This document shows positions 2,682-38,825 of a stretch of 39,203 nucleotides of DNA, piece by piece. Location: NCBI GenBank assembly GCA_964421145.1, contig CAYQVM010000001.1:6108-45310 (forward strand), given 5' to 3'. The position numbers and the translations under genes are program-made. The stretch is from an uncultured Planctomycetia bacterium. GTDB taxonomy: Bacteria > Omnitrophota > Gorgyraeia > JABMQH01. The notes below the pieces were generated by a model, which saw only the letters and a list, made by a program, of their open reading frames with translations, was not told the DNA's origin and ran no database searches. Numbering within the stretch: position 1 is the first letter of the stretch; each line of letters begins with the position of its first letter.

Positions 2682-3928
2682 CCCAGTCAGAATTGAAACG
2701 CATAGCGCAAATCGAAGGCGTGGATGTCGATCTTTTAAAAGAAAATATCCGCCTGGGCAAAACCGTGGTCCCCAATAATACAAAAAGAAAAATCGCTAAA
2801 CCTTGCGCTATAGGGGCGGGCCTGCGCACAAAGGTAAATGCGAATATAGGAACCTCACTGGATAAACCCAGTCTGACTGAGGAATTAAAAAAATTAGAGG
2901 TCTCAATAAAAGCGGGGGCTGATGCGGTAATGGATCTCTCAACCGGCGGGGACCTAAAAAAGATCAGAAAGGCGGTCGTTAAGAATTCCTGTATACCTGT
3001 AGGCACTGTGCCTATATATGAGGCCGCGGTAAAAACCTCCCAAAGAAACAAGGCGATAAAAGACATAGACCCGAAATTGTTCCTTGACGTGCTGGAGGAA
3101 CAGGCGGAAGACGGAGTAGACTTTTTCACGATACACGCCGGAGTCACAAGAGAGGCGGTAGAAAGGCTTAAAAATCAGGGCCGCCTGCTTAATATAGTCT
3201 CAAGGGGAGGGGCTATCCTGACCGAATGGATGCTCGCCAACAACGAAGAAAATCCTTATTATGAAAATTTCAGCGAGGTCCTGAAAATTTCCAAAAAATA
3301 CAACATAACCTTAAGCCTTGGCGACGGACTCAGGCCGGGCGCCATTCAGGACGGGACAGACAGGGCGCAGATTCAGGAGCTGATTATCCTCGGGGAGCTG
3401 GCCAAAAAATCAAGAGAGGCCAACGTACAGGTCATGATAGAAGGGCCGGGACACATCCCGCTTGACCAGATTGAGATGAATGTAAAACTGGAAAAATCAC
3501 TGTGCGACGGCGCGCCGTTTTACGTCTTGGGGCCGCTGGTAACCGACGTCGCGCCGGGCTACGACCACATAACCAGCGCCATCGGCGGAGCGATAGCGGC
3601 GAGTTACGGGGCCGATTTTTTATGCTATGTAACGCCTTCGGAGCATCTACGACTGCCTACCGTCGAAGACGTGGAAATGGGTGTAATAGCGTCCCGAATC
3701 GCCGCACACGCCGCGGATATCGTCAAGGGGGTGCCCAAAGCGGCCGAATGGGACCGGAAGATGTCGGCCGCAAGAAAAAAAAGGGACTGGAACAGGCAGT
3801 TCGACCTCGCCTTGGACCCGAAAAGGCCTAGGTTATTAAGAAAAATCTCAAAACCGGATTCGGAAGATGTCTGCACGATGTGCAGCAAATACTGTTCCAT
3901 AAAAATAATAGAAAAGCGCTTAAAATGA
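2678..3928 (+). CDS. thiC: Phosphomethylpyrimidine (HMP-P) synthase
   Basis: 416 aa with ThiC-family sequence throughout (GTVPIYEA, FFTIHAGV, MIEGPGH, APFYVLGPLVTDVAPGYDHI) and a C-terminal Cys cluster CTMCSKYC. Confidence 0.92.
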   Translation: MTQSELKRIAQIEGVDVDLLKENIRLGKTVVPNNTKRKIAKPCAIGAGLRTKVNANIGTSLDKPSLTEELKKLEVSIKAGADAVMDLSTGGDLKKIRKAVVKNSCIPVGTVPIYEAAVKTSQRNKAIKDIDPKLFLDVLEEQAEDGVDFFTIHAGVTREAVERLKNQGRLLNIVSRGGAILTEWMLANNEENPYYENFSEVLKISKKYNITLSLGDGLRPGAIQDGTDRAQIQELIILGELAKKSREANVQVMIEGPGHIPLDQIEMNVKLEKSLCDGAPFYVLGPLVTDVAPGYDHITSAIGGAIAASYGADFLCYVTPSEHLRLPTVEDVEMGVIASRIAAHAADIVKGVPKAAEWDRKMSAARKKRDWNRQFDLALDPKRPRLLRKISKPDSEDVCTMCSKYCSIKIIEKRLK

Positions 3929-10238: not shown

Positions 10239-10242
10239 CTAG

Positions 10243-10320
10243 CCTCCCATTTTACCCTGATTTTTCTAATCTGTAAAATGATCCCGAGCTTCCCTGGTCT
10301 TGTTACTCTGAAGCGAGGGA
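10243..10320 (-). promoter_or_regulatory. Two-hairpin 5' leader motif, copy 1 (upstream of the PilZ gene)
   Basis: RNA sense: UCCCUCGCUUC..GAAGCUCGGGA, then CAUUUUAC..GUAAAAUG, then GGGAGG. About 85% identical to copy 2 and structurally matched by copy 3. Confidence 0.6.
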
Positions 10321-10334
10321 CTATGTATTACGGT

Positions 10335-11944: not shown

Positions 11945-12185
11945 AATAATCCGGTTTTTTCATGAAAACCCGACAAGCATAGATACGCCGAGAGGCGTGG
12001 CTGCGTGGACGGGGGAGAGTAGGCAGGACGCCAAGAAAGCGCTCTTAAAACTGGCTGAATTAAAGATTATCACGCCGCATAGGGTCTCGTCCACAACGGC
12101 GTATAGCTATACGAGAGATTCCAAATTAATCAAAAAGATAGGGATGGCCTTAAAGAAAATTAAAAAGTCCCTCGCTTCAGAGTAG
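11904..12185 (+). CDS. Small hypothetical protein, possibly winged-helix-like
   Basis: 93-aa ORF with a GTG start 41 nt inside the upstream gene. The helix-rich sequence IYFKIIRFFHENPTSIDTPRGVAAWTG..AKKALLKLAELKII is suggestive only. Its last 6 codons lie in leader-motif copy 2. Confidence 0.4.
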   Translation: MELSKALKVPIYFKIIRFFHENPTSIDTPRGVAAWTGESRQDAKKALLKLAELKIITPHRVSSTTAYSYTRDSKLIKKIGMALKKIKKSLASE

Positions 12186-12247
12186 AAGGACTATGGAAGC
12201 TCGGGATCATTTTACATATTAAGAAAAAACAGGGTAAAATGGGAGGG
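12168..12247 (+). promoter_or_regulatory. Two-hairpin 5' leader motif, copy 2 (upstream of the coiled-coil lipoprotein gene)
   Basis: UCCCUCGCUUC..GAAGCUCGGGA, CAUUUUAC..GUAAAAUG, GGGAGGG. ATG at 12253. Confidence 0.6.
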
Positions 12248-12252
12248 TGGAT

Positions 12253-14452: not shown

Positions 14453-14920
14453 ATGCAGATCAGAAAATTCGCGGAACCGGACGGGGCAAAGGTAAAAGAA
14501 CTGATACTTTCAATACTGGAAAAAGAATATCCTTTTGACCGGAAGGCCTACTCGGATACCGATCTTGAAAATATCGGAGCGACTTATGGCGGACCGCATG
14601 ACACTTTTTTTGTAATTGAAAACGATAATAAGATAATAGCTACCGGCGGCATCAAAGAAGATACAAGGGATACCGCATTGTTAAGGAGGGTCTTTGTGGA
14701 CCCTAACGAACGCCGGAAGGGTTACGGCTCCAAGCTTTTGGACAAAGCAATCAAATTCTGTAAAGAAGCAGGTTATAAACAACTGGTATTTAGGGCAACC
14801 GGCAAGATGATCAATGCAATAGAGCTGTGCAAGAAAAAAGGCTTTAAGGAAGCGGAAAAACTGGACCTCGGCGGGTTTTTTATTTATAGGTTCGTTTTAG
14901 ACCTGGCTATTCAGAACTGA
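14453..14920 (+). CDS. GNAT-family N-acetyltransferase
   Basis: LRRVFVDPNERRKGYGSKLLDKAIKFCKEAGY (acetyl-CoA binding motif A). ATG 14453 has better spacing to the AAAGAGG SD than GTG 14447. Confidence 0.8.
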   Translation: MQIRKFAEPDGAKVKELILSILEKEYPFDRKAYSDTDLENIGATYGGPHDTFFVIENDNKIIATGGIKEDTRDTALLRRVFVDPNERRKGYGSKLLDKAIKFCKEAGYKQLVFRATGKMINAIELCKKKGFKEAEKLDLGGFFIYRFVLDLAIQN

Positions 14921-15407
14921 GCTCAAACTCCTTATCATTAAAAACAAATTTCACGCTCGCCCGATTTATCTCAATAAGCGTAGCCCCCTCAATCATATCG
15001 CCTTTTGACAGCACTTTATTATTGACTATAGCATAAGGCCTTTCGTTATCATAAACAATCCCGCTTAAATTCAAAGTCGGTAAATCCGGCGCATTTTTAG
15101 ACGGTGATACCGGCGCGGAGGCCTGTCGCGTTTCCTCTTTGATAGGCTCTACTTTAGAAACCTTTTTAAAAAAACTTTTGAAAAAAAGCAGCGTCCCTGA
15201 AATTATTACAACAACCATTAAAACGGGTAAAAACCGCCTGATCTTCGCGGGACGCTTGAAACCCTGACGCGACACAGCGGGCAGAGAAGAAACCTGTGTA
15301 TTTGACGGCGCACCTGCGCTGGGTTCGGGTACTTGATCGGCAGCCACGTTAACCCGCTGCTTGTTTGCTTCCTGCGCCTTCTTCAGCGCCTCATTTATTA
15401 TACTCAC
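14907..15407 (-). CDS. GspB/ExeB-like protein (partner of the ExeA-type ATPase)
   Basis: N-terminus MSIINEALKKAQ, one TM helix, and a C-terminal LNLSGIVYDNERPYAIVNNKVLSKGD like the GspB C-terminal domain. The GTG start is supplied by palindromic element copy A. Confidence 0.6.
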   Translation of the reverse strand: MSIINEALKKAQEANKQRVNVAADQVPEPSAGAPSNTQVSSLPAVSRQGFKRPAKIRRFLPVLMVVVIISGTLLFFKSFFKKVSKVEPIKEETRQASAPVSPSKNAPDLPTLNLSGIVYDNERPYAIVNNKVLSKGDMIEGATLIEINRASVKFVFNDKEFELSSE

Positions 15408-15454
15408 CCAGCCCCTCCTGCTTACCCAGTACCCCTCTCATAGGAGGGGCTGGG
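15406..15454 (-). repeat. Palindromic SD-GUG element, copy A
   Basis: Arms CCCAGCCCCTCCT (15407-15419) and AGGAGGGGCTGGG (15442-15454) with a 22-nt loop. Lies at the junction of the ExeA-like stop (15422) and the GspB-like GTG (15407). Confidence 0.85.
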
Positions 15455-16270
15455 CTCATAAACGTGTCCTTTTATTTCCTCGACCGCCCTCTTTATCAAA
15501 TCCAGGTTTATATGGCGCGTCTCGAGGACAAACCCAAAAAGCAACGCCCTGTCGCATGCCATGTTAATAAGCCTCGGAACCCCTTCGGAAAACTTATAAA
15601 TTTCGTCAATGGCGTCGCTTGAAAATTTTATGCTCCCGTCCGAACCGGCTACCCTCAATCTATGTTCTATATAGGCCTCGAGTTCTTCGGCATCCAGGGG
15701 GGCAATATGATAGCGGATGCTAATCCGCTGCCTCAGCTGGGCCAAATCCGGCGAATTAAGCTTATCTCTTAACTCCGGCTGGCCGACCAAAACTATCTGT
15801 ATCAGTTTTTCTTTCTCTGTCTCAAGGTTTGACAGAAGCCGTATCTGCTCAAGCAGGGAAGACTTCAGATTCTGCGCCTCATCAATGATAAGAACCACGT
15901 TATTGCGCAGGGCAAGCTGATTTATTAAAAACCTGTTCAGGAGATGGAATATCGTAAGCTTCTTCGCCTTCTTGGGCAGCTGTATGCCGAAATCCTCGGC
16001 AATGGACTCCAGCAATTGAAGCTCTGAAAGATCGGGGTTGATAACAAAAGCGGTTTTTACCTTTCTGTCAAATTTATTAAGGAGGGCCTTGCAAAGGGTG
16101 GTTTTGCCTGTTCCGATTTCGCCCGTAACCTCCAAGAAGCCCTTGCGCTGCTCTATACCATAGGTCAAGAAGGCAAGCGCCTCTTTGTGTTTCCGGCTCA
16201 TGAATAAAAAATTCGGGTCGCTTGTTACATTGAAGGGGTTTTCCCTGAGCTTGAAAAATTCTATATACAT
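15422..16270 (-). CDS. ExeA/GspA/MshM-like AAA ATPase
   Basis: N-terminus FFKLRENPFNVTSDPNFLF, Walker A GEIGTGKTT and Walker B LIIDEAQNL. The last 11 codons and the stop are encoded by element copy A. Confidence 0.85.
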   Translation of the reverse strand: MYIEFFKLRENPFNVTSDPNFLFMSRKHKEALAFLTYGIEQRKGFLEVTGEIGTGKTTLCKALLNKFDRKVKTAFVINPDLSELQLLESIAEDFGIQLPKKAKKLTIFHLLNRFLINQLALRNNVVLIIDEAQNLKSSLLEQIRLLSNLETEKEKLIQIVLVGQPELRDKLNSPDLAQLRQRISIRYHIAPLDAEELEAYIEHRLRVAGSDGSIKFSSDAIDEIYKFSEGVPRLINMACDRALLFGFVLETRHINLDLIKRAVEEIKGHVYEPSPSYERGTG

Positions 16271-20609: not shown

Positions 20610-20960
20610 ATGGGAAAGGCCATTGAAGAAAAACGGAAATATTTACGTTTGAATAACGCGCTAGAGACTGAATACACGCTGTCAAATTCGGACAGAAGAT
20701 ATTTGGCTACGACAAAAGATATCAGCGCCGTAGGTTTGAGGATTTCTACGCCTCAGAAATTAGAAGAGGGCTCCAATATAGAAATCACATTAAAATTACC
20801 TAATGCGCAAAGCGCGGTTCACGCCTCCGGGCGCGTAGCCTGGTCAAAAAAAACCACCCCTGAAGATAAGCTGTTTGACTCCGGCGTAGAATTTTTGAAA
20901 ATTGAAGACGACAATAAGAATACGTTTCTTAAGTATTTGTGTGATTTGATCTATGGGTAA
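20610..20960 (+). CDS. Single-domain PilZ protein
   Basis: RKYLR (RxxxR) and DISAVG (DxSxxG). 116 aa. Confidence 0.75.
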   Translation: MGKAIEEKRKYLRLNNALETEYTLSNSDRRYLATTKDISAVGLRISTPQKLEEGSNIEITLKLPNAQSAVHASGRVAWSKKTTPEDKLFDSGVEFLKIEDDNKNTFLKYLCDLIYG

Positions 20961-21381
20961 GGAGCCTATGAGAAAAAACTTGGTTTATGGTATGGAATTT
21001 CAAAAAACCGAAATTCCAACCACTGAAAATCGCCTAAAGGTTATCGCGAAGCGATTTTCTTGTGCGCTAGGTATTGTCGTTCTGCTGGGCATAATGGGTT
21101 GCGCTGAACTGACAACTCCGGATCCCAATAAGCCAACCTCTCACCCGCTTGGTTTTGGCCCAATTGAGATAGGTATGACAAAAGATGAAATCAAATCTTT
21201 TTGGGGCGAGCCGGACCTGATCCGGGACATCGCTGAAAGCAAAGATAAGGGGGCTACCCAAAAAGAAGAGTGGGTTTACTACGGCCGGGTAAACCAGCTG
21301 CCTGTAAATTACGGTTATCTTGCTAAAGCTCTCCATTTATACTTCGACGGCAAAAACCTCACAGGCTACAAATACGAATGA
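20953..21381 (+). CDS. Lipoprotein with a BamE/SmpA-OmlA-like domain
   Basis: Lipobox LGIMGC and IEIGMTKDEIKSFWGEPD. The exact start is uncertain (ATGs at 20953, 20968 and 20992). Confidence 0.5.
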   Translation: MGKEPMRKNLVYGMEFQKTEIPTTENRLKVIAKRFSCALGIVVLLGIMGCAELTTPDPNKPTSHPLGFGPIEIGMTKDEIKSFWGEPDLIRDIAESKDKGATQKEEWVYYGRVNQLPVNYGYLAKALHLYFDGKNLTGYKYE

Positions 21382-21430
21382 ACCCAGCCCCTCCTATAGA
21401 AGGCAACTGGGTTAGTAGGAGGGGCTGGGT
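21382..21430 (+). repeat. Palindromic SD-GUG element, copy B
   Basis: ACCCAGCCCCTCCT (21382-21395) and AGGAGGGGCTGGGT (21417-21430) with a 21-nt loop. Starts 1 nt after the upstream stop (21379-21381). Confidence 0.85.
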
Positions 21431-21629
21431 GAAAAAAAATTGGTTGCACTACTTAGCGTGCATAGTTGCACCGCATATCATGCTTTTTGTCGGTCTAATA
21501 TACCTAACCAAACAGGATATTAATAAAAAAGCTATGGGTAAAAGGATTTGCATCCTGTCCAGCATCGTGCTTATTACCGGTAGTTTAATATATTACATGT
21601 TTTTCACGCCTATTTTTGGCCTGGATTGA
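21429..21629 (+). CDS. Small two-TM membrane protein (66 aa from GTG 21429; alternatively 83 aa from ATG 21378)
   Basis: Hydrophobic segments LACIVAPHIMLFVGLIYL and ILSSIVLITGSLIYYMFF. GTG 21429 has the same AGGAGG-6 nt-GTG geometry as copies A and D. Bracketed by element copies B and C. Confidence 0.45.
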   Translation: MKKNWLHYLACIVAPHIMLFVGLIYLTKQDINKKAMGKRICILSSIVLITGSLIYYMFFTPIFGLD

Positions 21630-21677
21630 CCCAGCCCTTCCTAAAGAAGGCAACTGGGTTAGCAGGAAGGGCTGGGT
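21629..21677 (+). repeat. Palindromic element, copy C (stem with compensatory C>T / G>A change; terminator-like context)
   Basis: ACCCAGCCCTTCCT (21629-21642) and AGGAAGGGCTGGGT (21664-21677), followed by TGATTTTTC. No ORF follows. Confidence 0.85.
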
Positions 21678-21686
21678 TGATTTTTC

Positions 21687-21715
21687 TTGACAAAATGCCC
21701 CCCGCATGCTATCCT
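21687..21715 (+). promoter_or_regulatory. Putative promoter of the cold-shock gene (predicts a ~165-nt 5' UTR)
   Basis: TTGACA (21687-21692), 17 nt, TATCCT (21710-21715). Confidence 0.45.
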
Positions 21716-26571: not shown

Positions 26572-26767
26572 GGGGCCGATAAAGGCAAACCCTGAGAAAT
26601 CAGGGGACAGGCTAAATGCCTGACCGGAAGGTCGCAAAGCCTCAGGCCTAAGCTGTTATGCATGCCATGAAGGAAGGTGAGGCAAAAGAGCAAATAAAAA
26701 GCATAACAGTATGGTAGCTGGGCTGCCGAAACGCAGAGCAACTTAAGCAATGCGCTTTATTGGCTCC
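26572..26767 (+). promoter_or_regulatory. c-di-GMP-I (GEMM-I)-like riboswitch aptamer with extra peripheral hairpins
   Basis: Contains GGCAAACC-CUGA-GAAA-UCAG-GGGAC, GCAAAGCCUCAGGCCUAAG and UAUGGUAGCUGGGCUGCC. These match the GEMM-I consensus as I recall it, including a GAAA tetraloop and the 11-nt receptor. A 13-bp closing helix joins 26572-26584 to 26755-26767. Confidence 0.8.
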
Positions 26768-26777
26768 TTTTAGTAAG

Positions 26778-26808
26778 CGATATGCAAATGCGGCATATCG
26801 TTTTTTTT
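26778..26808 (+). terminator. Intrinsic terminator (expression platform of the riboswitch)
   Basis: CGATATGC / GCATATCG forms an 8-bp stem with a 7-nt loop, followed by T8. Confidence 0.75.
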
Positions 26809-26873
26809 ATTTGCATTTTTCTCTGCACTTAGTATATAATATAATAACTAGATATATAATATTTAGTCCTATA

Positions 26874-27626
26874 ATGAGCGAATCTTTAGATGAATTAAAA
26901 CGGGTAGAAGTAAATCAGTTCCAGGAAGAATTGGCAAAAACATATTTTTCAACAGGTTCTTCAAAAGAAGAGTATTCCTCACAGCCTAAACCTGCCGCCA
27001 AAGACAAAAACAATAGGAATAGAAACGGCCTTTTATTGGCTATTTTTCTAACCTTATTAATTATCACATCCATTGCCTTCCTGGCATTTAACCGCTTGAC
27101 TATTAATGTAAAGATAACTCCTGTGCCCAATTCCGGGATAGACAATAGCGCATATACCGGGATAGTCCCTTTTAATAAAAACGGAGAGCTTAATAATGAC
27201 CTTGTTAAACATGTGGTATTCTATGAAAATGCCGGAAATGAAAGCGCCTGGGGCAAGGATATTACCGTACTTTCAAATGAGGACATATCAAAAAAGGCTG
27301 TGTTGGGAATAGATTTTGTTAAACCAATAAGCCTAAAGGAGAAAATACTTTGTTTTCTTGCCAGGGGCAATAGCGGGGGCGAAGAATTCAGGATTGCGTT
27401 GCGCGATAATGAGAATAACATTTGTTATTCAAAAATCAGCGCCATAGAAAATGGGTGGCAAAAATTTATTGTAGACGGACTGACGGCCCAAGATTTTATA
27501 GATGCGGAAAAAATTAACCATATTGATTTTGAAGTAAATCCCGCAGAAAAAATTTTTTTAAACTCTTCAACTATTTACCTTAAGGATATGTATTTGGCTA
27601 AACAGGAAGGAGGCCCCGAGAAATGA
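26874..27626 (+). CDS. Single-pass membrane protein with an extracytoplasmic beta-rich (carbohydrate-binding-module-like?) domain
   Basis: Cytoplasmic N-terminus, TM helix LLLAIFLTLLIITSIAFLAF, and a ~170-aa C-terminal domain. ATG 26874 chosen because the track start (TTG 26760) lies inside the riboswitch closing helix. Confidence 0.55.
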   Translation: MSESLDELKRVEVNQFQEELAKTYFSTGSSKEEYSSQPKPAAKDKNNRNRNGLLLAIFLTLLIITSIAFLAFNRLTINVKITPVPNSGIDNSAYTGIVPFNKNGELNNDLVKHVVFYENAGNESAWGKDITVLSNEDISKKAVLGIDFVKPISLKEKILCFLARGNSGGEEFRIALRDNENNICYSKISAIENGWQKFIVDGLTAQDFIDAEKINHIDFEVNPAEKIFLNSSTIYLKDMYLAKQEGGPEK

Positions 27627-32240: not shown

Positions 32241-32246
32241 CTCATA

Positions 32247-32328
32247 CCTCCCATTTTGTCCTAATTTTACTTAACCCACAAAATGATCCCGAGGCACCCT
32301 TGTTTTACATACCCCCGGTGCCGAGGGA
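32247..32328 (-). promoter_or_regulatory. Two-hairpin 5' leader motif, copy 3 (upstream of the RAM-domain gene)
   Basis: RNA sense: UCCCUCGGCACC..GGUGCCUCGGGA, CAUUUUGU..ACAAAAUG, GGGAGG. Both stems carry compensatory changes relative to copies 1 and 2. Confidence 0.6.
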
Positions 32329-32383
32329 CTTCTCTATTACCTGATTTTAACACACTCTCCTTATCAAAACAAGGTTATTAAAA

Positions 32384-34915: not shown

Positions 34916-36640
34916 TTATTTTGTCTTTTTAAGACGCCTTAAGACCTCTTCGGCATTGAAACAATTCAGAATATTTTTCTTCTCAAGCCAGCCCCTCCTT
35001 GCTACACTAAGGCCGTATTTCATGTTGTCAAGCTGATCGACATGGTGCGTATCCGTGCCGATGGCAAGCACGACACCCATGGACCCTGCCCTTCTTGCGC
35101 TTGTATCATCAAGGTCCAGCCGGGATGGAAACGAGTTTATCTCCAGGGCAGTATTCGTATCTCTGGCCGCTTTAAAGACCTCATCCATATCAACGGCGTA
35201 AGCGTCTCTCGAACCCATCAACCTGCCGGTGGGATGTGCTATTATATTGACATACCTGTTTTGCATAGCCTTTATTATCCTTTTGGTCAACTTCTCTTTT
35301 GACTGTTTAAATCCGCTGTGGATTGCCGCGACAACAATATCAAGTTCTGACAGGACTTCATCTTTAAAATCCAGGGAGCCATCATCCAGGATATCAACCT
35401 CGGCGCCAGCCATGACCCTAAAATCCTTTAGCTTCTTATTAATATTTTTTATGTTTTTTACCTGATTAAGCAATTCCCGCTCCTTAAGGCCTCCCGCAAC
35501 AGCCAAAGTTTGAGAATGGTCGGTGATCGCCAGATACTTATACCCTCTTCGGATCGCCGCTCTTACAAGGTCATCTATTGAATCCGACCCATCACTTGCC
35601 TTTGTATGGACATGAAAATCCCCTTTTATATCTGTCAATTCTACTAAATGCGGCAATTTATTTTCAAGCGCCGCTTTGATCTCCCCCCTGTCCTCTCTTA
35701 ATTCCGGTGGTATGAACCTAAGCCTGAGAACCCTGTATATCTCCTCTTCTGTCTCCCCGCCTAATCTTTTATTGGTTTTAACCGAGAAAACGCCATATTC
35801 GTTTATCTTTAGGCCTTTTTTAACCGCCGCCTCCCTAAGCCGTATATTGTGTTCTTTTGAGCCCGTAAAATATAAGAGCGCGGCGCCAAAGCTCCTCGGC
35901 TCAACAGCCCTTACATCCACCTGCATATCCTCTTTTGTTATCGCGCTGGATTTAGTGGGCCCGTGCGCGAGAACCCTTTTAATAAAAGGAAGCTTTATGA
36001 AAGTATTCATCACATCTACGGGTGAAGTTGTTGTGATCAGTATATCTATATCCCGGATAGTCTCTTTCCGGCGCCTGAGGCTTCCACACGCCGCTATCTG
36101 GTTAATCTGCGAAGCATTCTTTAGGGCCAAGACTATCTCTTCGGCCATCGGCAGCGCTAGACCTAAGGAAACTCTCTCTTTACCTTTCCTTACAATCTGG
36201 ATACCTTTGAGTATATTCTCTTCGGTCTTCCGGCGTATTCCCGGAATGCTGCTTAACTTATGCGCCTTCGCCTTGCTTTCTAGGTCATTGATACTTTTTA
36301 TCTTAAGCTTATTCACCAATGTCTTTGCGGTCTTGGGCCCTATTCCGGGAATATCTATAAGCTTTAAAAATGCCGGTGAGACCTTTTTCTTCAGACCCTC
36401 AAAAAAGGCGACCTTGCCTGTCCCGATAAATTCCCGGATCTTCCCGGCAAGATCAGCGCCCACGCTAGGGATGTCCGTCAGCTCATCTCTCTTGGCGATT
36501 TCGCCCACGTCTTCCGAGAGGGCCTCTATATTCTGGGCAGCCCTTCTGTAGGCCCTGATCCTGAACGGATTTTCGGCTTGGACTTCTAATATTTCAGCGA
36601 TTTGGTTGAAGATTTCCGCTATCTTGAGGTTGTTGGTCAT
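34916..36640 (-). CDS. polX: Family X DNA polymerase with a C-terminal PHP phosphoesterase domain
   Basis: N-terminal HhH motifs (IPGIGPKTA), the Pol beta-like core GSLRRRKETIRDIDIL, and PHP motifs (DFHVHT, ITDH, GTDTH). Confidence 0.9.
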   Translation of the reverse strand: MTNNLKIAEIFNQIAEILEVQAENPFRIRAYRRAAQNIEALSEDVGEIAKRDELTDIPSVGADLAGKIREFIGTGKVAFFEGLKKKVSPAFLKLIDIPGIGPKTAKTLVNKLKIKSINDLESKAKAHKLSSIPGIRRKTEENILKGIQIVRKGKERVSLGLALPMAEEIVLALKNASQINQIAACGSLRRRKETIRDIDILITTTSPVDVMNTFIKLPFIKRVLAHGPTKSSAITKEDMQVDVRAVEPRSFGAALLYFTGSKEHNIRLREAAVKKGLKINEYGVFSVKTNKRLGGETEEEIYRVLRLRFIPPELREDRGEIKAALENKLPHLVELTDIKGDFHVHTKASDGSDSIDDLVRAAIRRGYKYLAITDHSQTLAVAGGLKERELLNQVKNIKNINKKLKDFRVMAGAEVDILDDGSLDFKDEVLSELDIVVAAIHSGFKQSKEKLTKRIIKAMQNRYVNIIAHPTGRLMGSRDAYAVDMDEVFKAARDTNTALEINSFPSRLDLDDTSARRAGSMGVVLAIGTDTHHVDQLDNMKYGLSVARRGWLEKKNILNCFNAEEVLRRLKKTK

Positions 36641-37838
36641 CCTGCCTCTCTTGTCCGGAGCCTAATGTCTGCTTAAAGACATCCTGCAAAACCTTCTTAC
36701 CCGCATCCTCTATATTGCCCGTCTCTTTGACCTTTTCTATGATCATATTCGGTATCTTGGAGACCCCCCTCATTATGGCGTTGCCTATTGATTGGGCGAG
36801 GACCTTTTTAAGGGCTTCGGCGAGGTGAAATCGCGGGTCAGACAAAGTACCGGTTATCTCAAAGCTAAAATCTAAATCCCCACGGCTATTGATAAAAAAC
36901 TGCATAACGGTTTGCATCGGCAGGCCAAAAACCATGTTATCCGAGGAGGTATTGGGATTGGCGGCGACCTCCAGATCCGCTATGCTTACCAGCTGTATGG
37001 AATCAAGCTCGTTTCTCCTGCATTTCCCCTTAGCCGTCAAATTGAAACTTCCAGTAACGGCAAGTAGGGGGGCGGTATTTGTATAAAAAGGCATGAAGGC
37101 AGGCAATGATATATTAGTTGCTTGAAGATTTGCATCAAAGTCTATTAGTTCGGTAAGGAATCCCCCTCTGCCTTCGAAATTTACCCTGCCGGCACCACCG
37201 GGGAACGGCATCGCCCCCTGGCATTTAACCAGTGTAGGCATTTCACCCTGCCTTCTGGGTTTGGTCAAATTTGTTATATTCACATCTATCTCATTAAACG
37301 TTATTCTGGCACCCATGGCGTTGACTTTATAATTGATAAGCTGGTAAGTGCCTTTCTTAATCTCTATTTTCCTTATCGCAAAATACGTCTCTTTCTTTTG
37401 AGCGGGGGCAGCTGGGCCTGGACCACCGCCCCCAGAAGTATTCTTTTTGAAAATCATCCGCATATTAGAAATTCCGTCTTCTTTTATTTCTATATCAAAT
37501 TTAGGGGTATAGAGTAAGATCCGATCTATTATGATTTTTTTAAATAAAAGCGATTCTATGCTTACGTCTATATAGCCACTTGGTACGTTAACAAAAGATG
37601 CTTCGGCTGAACCTGCCGGATTTTTGATTTTTAGATCGGAAAAATAAACAATTCCTCTAAATAGGTCCACTTTTACATCACCGGCTTCTGCCTTTGTATT
37701 TATAAGCTTATTTAATTCCTCTATCCCCCTCTCTTTAATAAAATCGGAGGCGCGGCCCTGGACAAAAAAGGCCGCCATGGCCGCGGCGATGACGGCCAAA
37801 ATCAATACAATGCCCATAAAGATAAATGTCTTTTTCAC
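36594..37838 (-). CDS. AsmA-like / DUF748-like membrane-anchored protein
   Basis: N-terminal anchor MKKTFIFMGIVLILAVIAAAMAAF and repeated beta-rich segments like the AsmA/DUF748 families (by eye). The GTG start is supplied by element copy D. The 3' end overlaps polX by 47 nt. Confidence 0.5.
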   Translation of the reverse strand: MKKTFIFMGIVLILAVIAAAMAAFFVQGRASDFIKERGIEELNKLINTKAEAGDVKVDLFRGIVYFSDLKIKNPAGSAEASFVNVPSGYIDVSIESLLFKKIIIDRILLYTPKFDIEIKEDGISNMRMIFKKNTSGGGGPGPAAPAQKKETYFAIRKIEIKKGTYQLINYKVNAMGARITFNEIDVNITNLTKPRRQGEMPTLVKCQGAMPFPGGAGRVNFEGRGGFLTELIDFDANLQATNISLPAFMPFYTNTAPLLAVTGSFNLTAKGKCRRNELDSIQLVSIADLEVAANPNTSSDNMVFGLPMQTVMQFFINSRGDLDFSFEITGTLSDPRFHLAEALKKVLAQSIGNAIMRGVSKIPNMIIEKVKETGNIEDAGKKVLQDVFKQTLGSGQERQDDQQPQDSGNLQPNR

Positions 37839-37886
37839 CCAGCCCCTCCTGCTAACCCAGTGGCCCTCTATAAGGAGGGGCTGGGT
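37837..37886 (-). repeat. Palindromic SD-GUG element, copy D
   Basis: ACCCAGCCCCTCCT (37837-37850) and AGGAGGGGCTGGGT (37873-37886) with a 22-nt loop. It exactly fills the gap between the radical SAM stop (37887) and the AsmA-like GTG (37838). Confidence 0.85.
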
Positions 37887-38825
37887 TCATGTCTTCTTAA
37901 TATTCGTCCCTAATAAACGAAGGTCTATCTCCTTATTATTGCCCTCCTGGACCCACCCGTTCAGAAGTCCATATTTCAAAAGCAGGTTGAATACCTCTTC
38001 ATATTCTTTTGTATTTATCCTTCGGTTTATTTCAACAAATTCACCTGCGCGATAAACAGGATGGTACTGGCTCATCAGGCTAATATAGACCTCTTTCGAT
38101 ATATTTTCCGAAATAAACTTAAATATTTTTCCAGAGGCGGCGAGGCCGTTGGGCAAAACGAGGTGCCTTATAATCAACCCCTTTCGGGCTATCCCCTCAT
38201 CGCTTAATACAAGGTTTCCCACCTGCCGATACATCTCCTTAATGGCTTCCTGGTTTATTGTAACATAATCCGGTGCATTTGAAAACCTTTTGGCGCTCAT
38301 CTGGTCTCCATAGCGCATGTCGGGTAAATAGATATCCACTATCCCATCCAACATCTTCAGGGTAGAAATCAGCTCATAGCCGCTCGTATTGTATACGATG
38401 GGAATATTCAGCCCGTTTCCCGAAGCGATAAAAAGCGCTTCCATGATTTCCGGGACATAATGCGTAGGCGTTACCAGATTGATATTGTGGCAGCTATTTT
38501 TTTGAAGGGCCAGCATGATATCCGCAAGCTCCTCTATAGACACTTCTTTTCCTCCGGAAAGCTGGCTGAACTTGTAGTTCTGGCAATATACGCACTGCAT
38601 GGTGCAGTGAGTAAAAAAGATTGTGCCGGATCCTTTCTTGCCCGATATGGGCGGTTCTTCTCCGGGATGAGACAACCAGCTGTAAAGTGCGGGTTTGGGG
38701 CCGGCCTTGCAAAACCCTTTCTTGCCCTGCATCCTGTTGACCCTGCACCGCCTGGGGCACAGTTCACAGCTTCCCAAAGCCTCTCTTACTTTTTTTAGAT
38801 TGCTTTTTAACACACTTGTATTCAT
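37887..38825 (-). CDS. Radical SAM protein, PflX-like (homolog of pyruvate formate-lyase activating enzymes)
   Basis: N-terminal CELCPRRC and the radical SAM cluster motif CTMQCVYC (Cx3Cx2C). 312 aa. Confidence 0.75.
   Translation of the reverse strand: MNTSVLKSNLKKVREALGSCELCPRRCRVNRMQGKKGFCKAGPKPALYSWLSHPGEEPPISGKKGSGTIFFTHCTMQCVYCQNYKFSQLSGGKEVSIEELADIMLALQKNSCHNINLVTPTHYVPEIMEALFIASGNGLNIPIVYNTSGYELISTLKMLDGIVDIYLPDMRYGDQMSAKRFSNAPDYVTINQEAIKEMYRQVGNLVLSDEGIARKGLIIRHLVLPNGLAASGKIFKFISENISKEVYISLMSQYHPVYRAGEFVEINRRINTKEYEEVFNLLLKYGLLNGWVQEGNNKEIDLRLLGTNIKKT

Follow-up and report, generated by a model that had tools for sequence, protein, structure and literature searches.

A palindromic element of 47–48 nucleotides (nt) occurs four times in a 39,203-nt stretch of contig CAYQVM010000001.1, from an uncultured bacterium placed by GTDB in the Omnitrophota, an assignment to which named homologues and syntenic loci of metagenome-assembled genomes also point; this whole stretch is called the window below. 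Comparison with related loci indicates that the four copies are recent insertions of a miniature transposable element, and we hold it to be nearly certain that the element is mobile and duplicates its target on insertion. [quoted passage not shown]

Target-site duplications and empty sites

Syntenic, orthologous empty sites were found for all four window copies (69–97% amino acid identity), and in each the tetramer that borders the element is single. The copy 4 site reads AAGAAGAYATGAAAAAGAYA at four loci, compared with ATGAA[48 nt]TGAAAAAGACA in the window. The copy 1 site is empty at three loci, one of them at 97% protein identity, where GTTTATGAGTATAATAAATGAGG or GTTTA TGAG TATAATAA holds the tetramer once. 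Two loci carry the empty copy 2 site (GAATGAAAAAA), and one related locus carries the empty copy 3 site (GACTGATTTTCCTTGACAAA, compared with GATTGA[47 nt]TTGATTTTTCTTGACAAA in the window). Each window copy therefore consists of a 47–48-nt core and a 4-bp target-site duplication.

The four copies had been described previously in a reading of the letters of the window without database searches (the sequence-only reading), which also had all four in the same orientation relative to transcription of the flanking genes. Both descriptions were upheld, the positions by arm matches and hairpin folds and the orientation in 4/4 copies. When the element arm ACCCAGCCCCTCCT was searched with at most two mismatches, the window gave nine matches against 0.30 expected, and 0/100 shuffles reached nine; eight of the nine are the paired arms of the four copies (Table 1). 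The ninth, a solitary + strand match at 34986-34999 (13/14, AGCCAGCCCCTCCT) towards the 3' end of the coding sequence of PolX, probably arose by chance. Arms are perfect in all four copies, and with short flanks the copies fold into hairpins of 13–16 bp at about −34 kcal/mol (about −28 kcal/mol for the core alone), with z-scores of −3.8 to −5.9. The arms of copy 3 differ by a compensatory C>T / G>A pair (CCCC>CCCT / GGGG>AGGG). The 5' arm, which was said to begin with A, begins with G in copy 1.

A family of 70 copies

To survey the family, GTDB species genomes and Joint Genome Institute (JGI) metagenomes were scanned for the exact pattern CCAGCCCYTCCT-N14-30-AGGARGGGCTGG, with flanks unconstrained. 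The two scans returned 80 loci, and 70 non-redundant copies, from many assemblies, remained once unrelated palindromes and duplicates were removed. Hosts of the copies kept from the genome scan are records titled Omnitrophota, except for two titled Planctomycetota/Planctomycetia (L015, L020). At least nine copies occur in one metagenome-assembled genome and four in the 39-kb window. The consensus core is CCCAG-CCCYTCCT, an 18–30-nt loop and AGGARGGG-CTGGG; cores measure 44–56 nt, and the terminal inverted repeats are 13 bp and perfect (CCCAGCCCYTCCT / AGGARGGGCTGGG). In an alignment of 63 copies the 13-nt arms are paired in 99% of cells, and arm position 9 is paired in 61/63 copies though the search pattern admitted all four combinations.

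Flanking tetramers are identical in 59/70 copies, and in eight more 3/4 bases agree. The duplications are TGAA (41), TGAG (7, or 9 after re-orienting two copies with ambiguous loops), TGGA (2), TTAA (2), TAAA (2), TGCG (1) and TTGA (1). Among the 24 copies with a 5' tetramer other than TGAA, the same tetramer stands 3' in 18, an agreement attained by 0/10000 shuffles. With inverted repeats, a duplication seen by comparison of filled and empty sites, small size and many copies without a transposase gene, the element has the general features of a MITE. Rfam gave zero matches at the gathering score, and permissive E-values returned only chance hairpins of 15–19 bits against thresholds of 70–100. 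Viral contigs scanned for the end of the element yielded five matches attributable to chance and contained no element, and a full-text literature search with the arm sequences gave only unrelated eukaryotic or vector matches.

Several variants were seen among the loci. In those with CCCCGCCC ends and in a 26-nt mini-palindrome, the constant part is the outer 8–9 bp. Perfect 26-nt mini-palindromes (CCCAGCCCCTGCGCGCAGGGGCTGGG) at L041 5377-5402 and L036 1970-1995 keep only the outer ends and may be internally deleted elements; the one in L041 has a TGAA duplication after ATGAA. A different subfamily, with arms CCCCGCCCTTTTGG/CCAAAAGGGCGGGG, occupies exactly the site of window copy 2 in L087 (1953-2013, + strand), with the same TGAA duplication and beside a protein 90% identical to that of the window; it is either an independent insertion or a replacement at a hot spot. 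Hairpins of the form CCCCGCCCTTTTG...CAAAAGGGCGGGG followed by TTTTT, with unmatched flanks, lie in the spacer before a GH57 gene in L083 (1787-1819) and L084 (128-179). These look like intrinsic terminators and may be a source or a derivative of that subfamily. Four of the copies away from starts are tandem double insertions with a common tetramer (L030 about 150-260, L044 2817-2917, L062 1005-1108 and L074 5998-6095), a pattern that fits a second insertion into the target that the first element had regenerated.

Reconstruction of start codons

At 55 of the 70 junctions the sequence reads G-TG or A-TG followed by an open reading frame (ORF) of at least 60 codons or one running off the contig; the other 15, including window copy 3, serve no start. 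The base 5' of the upstream duplication in start-site copies is A in 47, G in three, T in one and C in none, which matches start-codon usage. Since A, G and T but never C precede the duplication, the insertions hit the TGNN of a start codon already present. The upstream gene ends at a TGA within the duplication, in an ATGA overlap, in 27 copies. The junction has the layout AGGAGG-GGCTGG-GTG, and in orthologues that lack the element an ATG stands at exactly the GTG codon of copies 1, 2 and 4.

The sequence-only reading had the element donate both a Shine-Dalgarno sequence (SD) and a start codon. The AGGAGG and the G do come from the element, but the TG belongs to the 4-bp target-site duplication. 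That AGGAGG, 6 nt and GTG precede a long ORF held for copies 1, 2 and 4. The GTG had also been called the first possible start of each gene, which fails at copy 2, where an open frame runs from the old ATG at 21378 across the element and in phase with the gene (21378-21629).

From these features, the right end AGGAGG-GGCTGG-G joined to a duplicated target beginning with TG would give AGGAGG, 6 nt and GTG at every such insertion. Insertion at an A-TGNN start would leave the upstream stop untouched and the old ATG 5' of the element, and the gene body would gain a strong SD and a GTG at the same codon, with both proteins unchanged. Related genomes use canonical AGGAGG SDs. In three copies (L020, L057, L059) the terminal G has changed to A, giving ATG again, the change to be expected from selection if the start codon is in use. 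We think it very likely that the rebuilt start is used.

Where the upstream gene reaches further into the next gene, as at copy 1, its C-terminus is rewritten by the insertion. The AAA_22 (ExeA-like) protein is 282 amino acids (aa) long and ends in ...VYEPSPSYERGTG, compared with 275 aa in orthologues, where the overlap with the next gene is 17 nt and translation of the empty-site DNA gives ...VYEYNK. That the ExeA-like gene takes its end from the element had been proposed in the sequence-only reading, and copy 1 does supply the last 10 residues and the stop; the identities given there to this gene, the GspB-like gene (T2SSB) and the AsmA-like gene (AsmA/DUF748) were confirmed by Pfam.

Selection and possible targeting at start codons

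Across 62 kb of related loci, only 5.5% of the DNA lies outside called genes. The same 62 kb contain 960 TGAR sites, 34 of them fully non-coding and 31 at a start codon. A simple filter in which coding insertions are lost and others tolerated predicts 48% of copies at starts, compared with the 79% observed (p about 1e-7). Purifying selection explains most placement at starts, given an element that prefers TGAR and can repair a start, in a genome of great compactness. The excess may reflect intolerance of many intergenic sites, an extra target preference, or a benefit. The portable coupling cassette of the sequence-only reading stood in part: the family is dispersed and palindromic and its orientation is fixed, but its placement at junctions is largely due to selection in genomes with ~5% non-coding DNA and is no evidence for a dedicated coupling cassette. 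The preference for gene junctions and for one orientation by which that idea was to be checked is present among the 70 copies (55 at starts, loop orientation 51:0).

Alternatively, though this is unlikely, start codons or ATGA overlaps (for example A-TGA-R in an A/T-rich context) could be chosen by the machinery of transposition, which would make placement mechanistic and not a matter of selection. The excess over the simple filter would fit such targeting, as would the share of TGAA, at 80% among the duplications of start-site copies and only 30% among the start contexts of related genomes. The reconstructed target has A at −1 in 49/59 copies, and the same start codon has been hit by two subfamilies in two close relatives. 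However, non-start sites are used as well, some of them directly after stops (TTAA, TTGA, TAAA) and one inside gatB; the bases present at −1 (A, G and T, never C) reflect the usage of start codons and not a base preference; and 5.5% non-coding DNA alone yields much of the enrichment.

Loop orientation and a proposed RNA mechanism

In start-site copies the loop is G-rich on the sense strand in 51/55 and reversed in none, and it is purine-rich in 54/55, despite perfectly palindromic arms from which an SD and GTG would form in either orientation. A relative with CCCCGCCCC ends lies in frame within the GatB_N domain of gatB (L042 1578-1632, + strand), where 47 nt and a 4-bp TTCA duplication amount to 17 codons. 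Here the duplication is reversed and the loop is still sense, so orientation follows transcription or replication and not target asymmetry. The loops hold an imperfect third copy of the 3' arm (GGAGGG..CTGGGT, GGGCTGGG or AAGGGYRGGGTTA). That a second arm-like sequence in the loop could pair with the 5' arm had been suggested in the sequence-only reading and was borne out by folding: the 5' arm and loop fold with a mean of −14.3 kcal/mol, compared with −8.4 kcal/mol for shuffled loops, and 47/70 copies lie within the 5% tail. With the loop antisense, its pairing partner would instead be the SD arm (−14.7 kcal/mol).

The old start codon is retained in 52/55 start-site copies, and reading from it has three outcomes. 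It may give an in-frame extension of 17 aa (17 copies, including window copy 2), a mini-ORF ending at a TGA that overlaps the new GTG (GTGA; six copies), or a stop in the loop 16–32 nt before the GTG or shortly after it. Core length modulo 3 divides the start-site copies into groups of 24, 18 and 13, and the six GTGA overlaps fall within the 13-copy class with length 1 modulo 3. The view of the element as mainly a coding or peptide insert was rejected on these lengths, which are only weakly biased.

We propose that in mRNA the full hairpin would bury the SD and GTG and silence free initiation. Ribosomes coming off the upstream gene, or setting out from the old AUG still in place, would translate or melt the 5' arm, and the purine-rich loop would act as a decoy that holds this arm and delays re-closure, so that the SD and GUG would be freed for initiation or re-initiation. 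Only the orientation that places the decoy on the mRNA would permit release, which would explain why loop orientation follows transcription. Sequence features and the RNA-unfolding model of known systems suggest coupling by hairpin opening and decoy, and we consider the chances of this mechanism to be about even.

It is also conceivable, and in our view improbable, that the element is a selfish insertion with no RNA role, translation still proceeding from the old ATG by fusion or ordinary re-initiation and AGGAGG being incidental. Retention of the old ATG, in frame and open in 17 copies, would agree with this, as would the AGGAGG-less subfamily at a start in L087 and the gatB insertion, a sequence tolerated as peptide. 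On the other side, the core lengths leave two thirds of copies unreadable through in frame, and three copies have changed G to A so that the junction is ATG. The loop orientation of 51:0 on symmetric arms and loop decoys of the SD arm stronger than composition would produce likewise count against a purely selfish insertion.

A further step would be that the family is specifically adapted to the start codons of ultra-compact genomes, as a self-contained cassette for start replacement, with a repeat doubling as SD, a terminal G chosen for completing GTG on targets that begin with TG, and a loop decoy evolved as anti-sequestor, so that a kinetic RNA switch would keep the hit gene expressed and translationally coupled. 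This idea is tentative, and we regard it as rather doubtful. If it were true, transposition would rewire coupling and start-codon strength at dozens of operon junctions per genome, and the element would be a natural portable coupling device.

Possible mobilizing machinery

A parental element would be expected to have the ends CCCAGCCCC...GGGGCTGGG. No known insertion sequence (IS) matches the element. The IS1380 family, which we take to have ends beginning with CC and a 4–5-bp duplication, is a possible parent but only an unconfirmed lead. Two candidates for an IS were rejected: the long inverted repeats at 10261-10327 / 12161-12227 represent a conserved 5' leader that is repeated on both sides of a GAF/HD-GYP gene, and an apparent pair of ends in L049 belongs to a ~75-nt inverted repeat flanking murF-mraY. 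An integron attC or other site-specific recombination site was also rejected, as the tetramer is variable and the inserted unit is the hairpin alone, with no cassette gene.

A hairpin of the repetitive extragenic palindromic (REP) or IS200/IS605 type, moved as single-stranded DNA by an HUH enzyme (RAYT or TnpA-Y1) and oriented by the replication strand, is a very improbable alternative. It would account for a short GC-rich hairpin of strict orientation with a conserved tetranucleotide beside it, and in the window genes, and hence copies, do change strand together. However, the tetramer is duplicated, copy-specific and single at empty sites, and HUH elements are not known to make a target duplication. 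REP, REPIN and IS200/IS605 elements were set aside because the flanks are a variable duplicated tetramer whose two copies co-vary from copy to copy (18/24 of those other than TGAA). No RAYT-like gene turned up in the loci examined, and the GTAG or CGTC head of the REP superfamilies (PMC3733652) is absent. A vertically inherited, immobile cis-regulatory RNA hairpin of several operons (an attenuator, terminator or RNase site) has practically no chance of being correct, for while the hairpin is stable with compensatory changes and a T-rich tract after copy 3 could terminate transcription, the element is missing from relatives as close as 97% aa identity, so that empty sites already contradict this view, target-site duplications are present, the flanking genes are unrelated and no Rfam family matches.

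Several points weigh against our account of a mobile element that rebuilds start codons. The scans demanded 12 exact bases per arm, so decayed copies were under-sampled, and a covariance model added only about eight copies in the loci examined. No transposase or full-length IS with CCC[AC]GCCC ends was found in the ~0.55 Mb of loci examined, where the ends matched only at unrelated solo sites, and we infer mobilization by a DDE enzyme solely from the duplication and inverted repeats. Use of the GTG and SD is likewise something we infer from the DNA. Where the old frame stays open into the gene (17 copies, window copy 2 among them), initiation at the old ATG could add about 17 aa, and the GTG may not be the sole start. 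The excess of 79% over 48% at starts may point to some extra targeting or benefit, and the subfamily with CCCCGCCCTTTTGG arms lies at a start in L087 without AGGAGG. Finally, the full hairpin dominates at equilibrium, so the decoy can act only kinetically.

Features of the window and neighboring genes

Table 1. Copies of the element in the window, their target-site duplications and the adjoining genes
Feature	Position	Strand	Remarks
Copy 1 core, 48 nt	15407..15454	-	CCCAGCCCCTCCT, 22-nt loop, AGGAGGGGCTGGG; absent at orthologous L085, L086, L088
Copy 1 upstream duplication TGAG	15455..15458	-	Old ATG 15459-15457
Copy 1 downstream duplication TGAG	15403..15406	-	New GTG of T2SSB-like gene, 15407-15405
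T2SSB (GspB-like) gene	14907..15407	-	Pfam T2SSB; starts at junction GTG; orthologues have ATG at same codon
AAA_22 (ExeA-like) gene	15422..16270	-	Pfam; final residues PSPSYERGTG and stop from copy 1
Copy 2 core, 47 nt	21383..21429	+	Absent from L088 and L086
Copy 2 upstream duplication TGAA	21379..21382	+	Contains stop TGA of gene 20953-21381; old ATG 21378-21380
Copy 2 downstream duplication TGAA	21430..21433	+	New GTG 21429-21431
66-aa membrane-protein ORF between copies 2 and 3	21429..21629	+	Conserved in relatives
Copy 3 core, 47 nt	21630..21676	+	CCCTTCCT/AGGAAGGG variant; after stop of small ORF; no downstream ORF; absent from L088
Copy 3 upstream duplication TTGA	21626..21629	+	Contains stop TGA
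Copy 3 downstream duplication TTGA	21677..21680	+	
Copy 4 core, 48 nt	37838..37885	-	Absent from L081-L084
Copy 4 upstream duplication TGAA	37886..37889	-	Holds radical SAM stop TGA (37889-37887); old ATG 37890-37888
Copy 4 downstream duplication TGAA	37834..37837	-	New GTG of AsmA/DUF748 gene, 37838-37836
AsmA/DUF748 gene	36594..37838	-	Starts at junction GTG
Radical SAM gene	37887..38825	-	Upstream of copy 4

Copy 2 is flanked by an unannotated 142-aa gene upstream and the 66-aa membrane ORF downstream. Orthologues of this small ORF without elements are 65–66 aa long (L088 10336-10536, L086 5559-5756), and its conservation there indicates a real gene and not cargo. The four AsmA/DUF748 orthologues (413–414 aa) have an ATG start within an ATGA overlap. 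On the 3' side of copy 3 (21677-21715, + strand), TTGATTTTTCTT is followed by a promoter-like TTGACA-17-TATCCT with a TG extension (10/12 matches), which is kept in relatives without the element. The copy 3 hairpin and T-rich tract might terminate the upstream operon.

Other features were observed in the window and related loci. A conserved leader of ~90 nt (GTCCCTCGCTTCAGAGTA..GGGAAGCTCGGGATCATTTTACAGATTAAGAAAAAWCAGGGTAAAATGGGAGG-N5-ATG) precedes three unrelated genes, at 10239-10330 (-), 12160-12252 (+) and 32241-32330 (-), and recurs in L088 at about 1520-1600; it has no Rfam match. Its third copy shows a compensatory change of GCTTC/GAAGC to GGCAC/GTGCC in a predicted helix. We regard it as a candidate for a structured leader RNA or an element of the riboswitch kind, and its copies are the cause of the long inverted repeats around the GAF/HD-GYP gene mentioned above. 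A c-di-GMP-I riboswitch at 26574-26730 (+) scored 49.7 bits (gathering score 35) upstream of an ORF at 26760-27626, and PilZ-domain genes are unusually abundant in the window and its relatives. In L049, the ~75-nt inverted repeats at 180-255 and 3143-3222 that flank murF and mraY each carry a small CAGCCCTTTC/GAAAGGGCTG hairpin.

Significance

These insertions show a way for mobile DNA to survive in a genome where non-coding sequence is almost lacking: the element lands on starts and repairs them itself, with a start codon made in part of its own sequence and in part of the target. [quoted passage not shown] The element accounts for a class of GTG starts with a perfect AGGAGG in Omnitrophota annotations, and annotators should be warned that such N-termini, small C-terminal replacements as in the ExeA-like protein and in-frame 17-aa inserts as in GatB are products of a transposon. 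The 48-nt unit lends itself to direct testing as a synthetic module for translational coupling or switching, and insertions polymorphic between relatives at 97% aa identity are useful strain markers.

Comparison with known repeat families

By analogy, the closest functional counterpart of the element is the mycobacterial MIRU. MIRUs (Supply et al. 1997; summaries in PMC3184786 and PMC12548453) are dispersed repeats of 40–100 bp in operons and are co-transcribed; they are described as mobile, with tetranucleotide direct repeats and known filled and empty sites, and as inserting at start codons, where an internal ORF coupled at −4 keeps the hit gene expressed. Start-codon insertion and tetranucleotide direct repeats are thus shared (55/70 copies at starts and 27 ATGA overlaps here), as are tandem copies. 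MIRU-like mini-ORFs ending in a GTGA overlap (six copies) arise only within the class with core length 1 modulo 3 (13/55, about a quarter), and the other classes give an in-frame fusion or other stops. MIRUs, however, do not form perfect palindromes, and descriptions of them mention no SD with a start, whereas here a hairpin with 13-bp arms brings AGGAGG and the G of a GTG that the duplicated target completes. The hosts here are Omnitrophota, another phylum, and the likeness drawn is one of description.

Bacterial MITEs such as Correia/NEMIS, Nezha and RUP (PMC10969869, PMC3184786) resemble the element in their inverted repeats, duplication, non-coding nature and many copies, and they also form hairpin RNA when co-transcribed and affect expression of neighboring genes. 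They are usually 100–400 bp, AT-rich and located in intergenic spacers, whereas the element is 44–56 nt (with a 26-nt mini form), GC-rich and placed on start codons with a 4-bp TGAR duplication. Rickettsia palindromic elements (PMC10969869) are likewise palindromic mobile repeats tolerated in frame within coding sequences; here one relative adds 17 aa in GatB and 17 copies could extend N-termini. In contrast to those elements, which are about 150 bp and mostly intragenic, intragenic copies are exceptional in this family.

The statement in the sequence-only reading that no family is known to donate an SD and start codon was too strong, in view of Neisseria REP2 and mycobacterial MIRUs (PMC3184786, PMC12548453). 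Neisseria REP2 repeats supply a promoter and a ribosome-binding site, as well as an ATG, and are grouped with Borrelia IR repeats among the closest known systems (PMC3184786). REP2 is longer, lacks inverted termini and a duplication, and carries a complete ATG, whereas the start codon here is a chimera of element and target. For the proposed RNA mechanism, the comparison is with RNA-unfolding coupling as in MS2 coat-lysis and rpmI-rplT, where upstream translation opens a hairpin that sequesters the downstream ribosome-binding site (PMC12548453). The 5' strand of the hairpin lies in or next to the upstream ORF in both cases. Those are single evolved loci, whereas transposition would here deliver a hairpin of the predicted function ready-made. 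Taken together, the comparisons suggest that the new features of this family are an inverted repeat that doubles as an SD, a chimeric start codon and a loop decoy.

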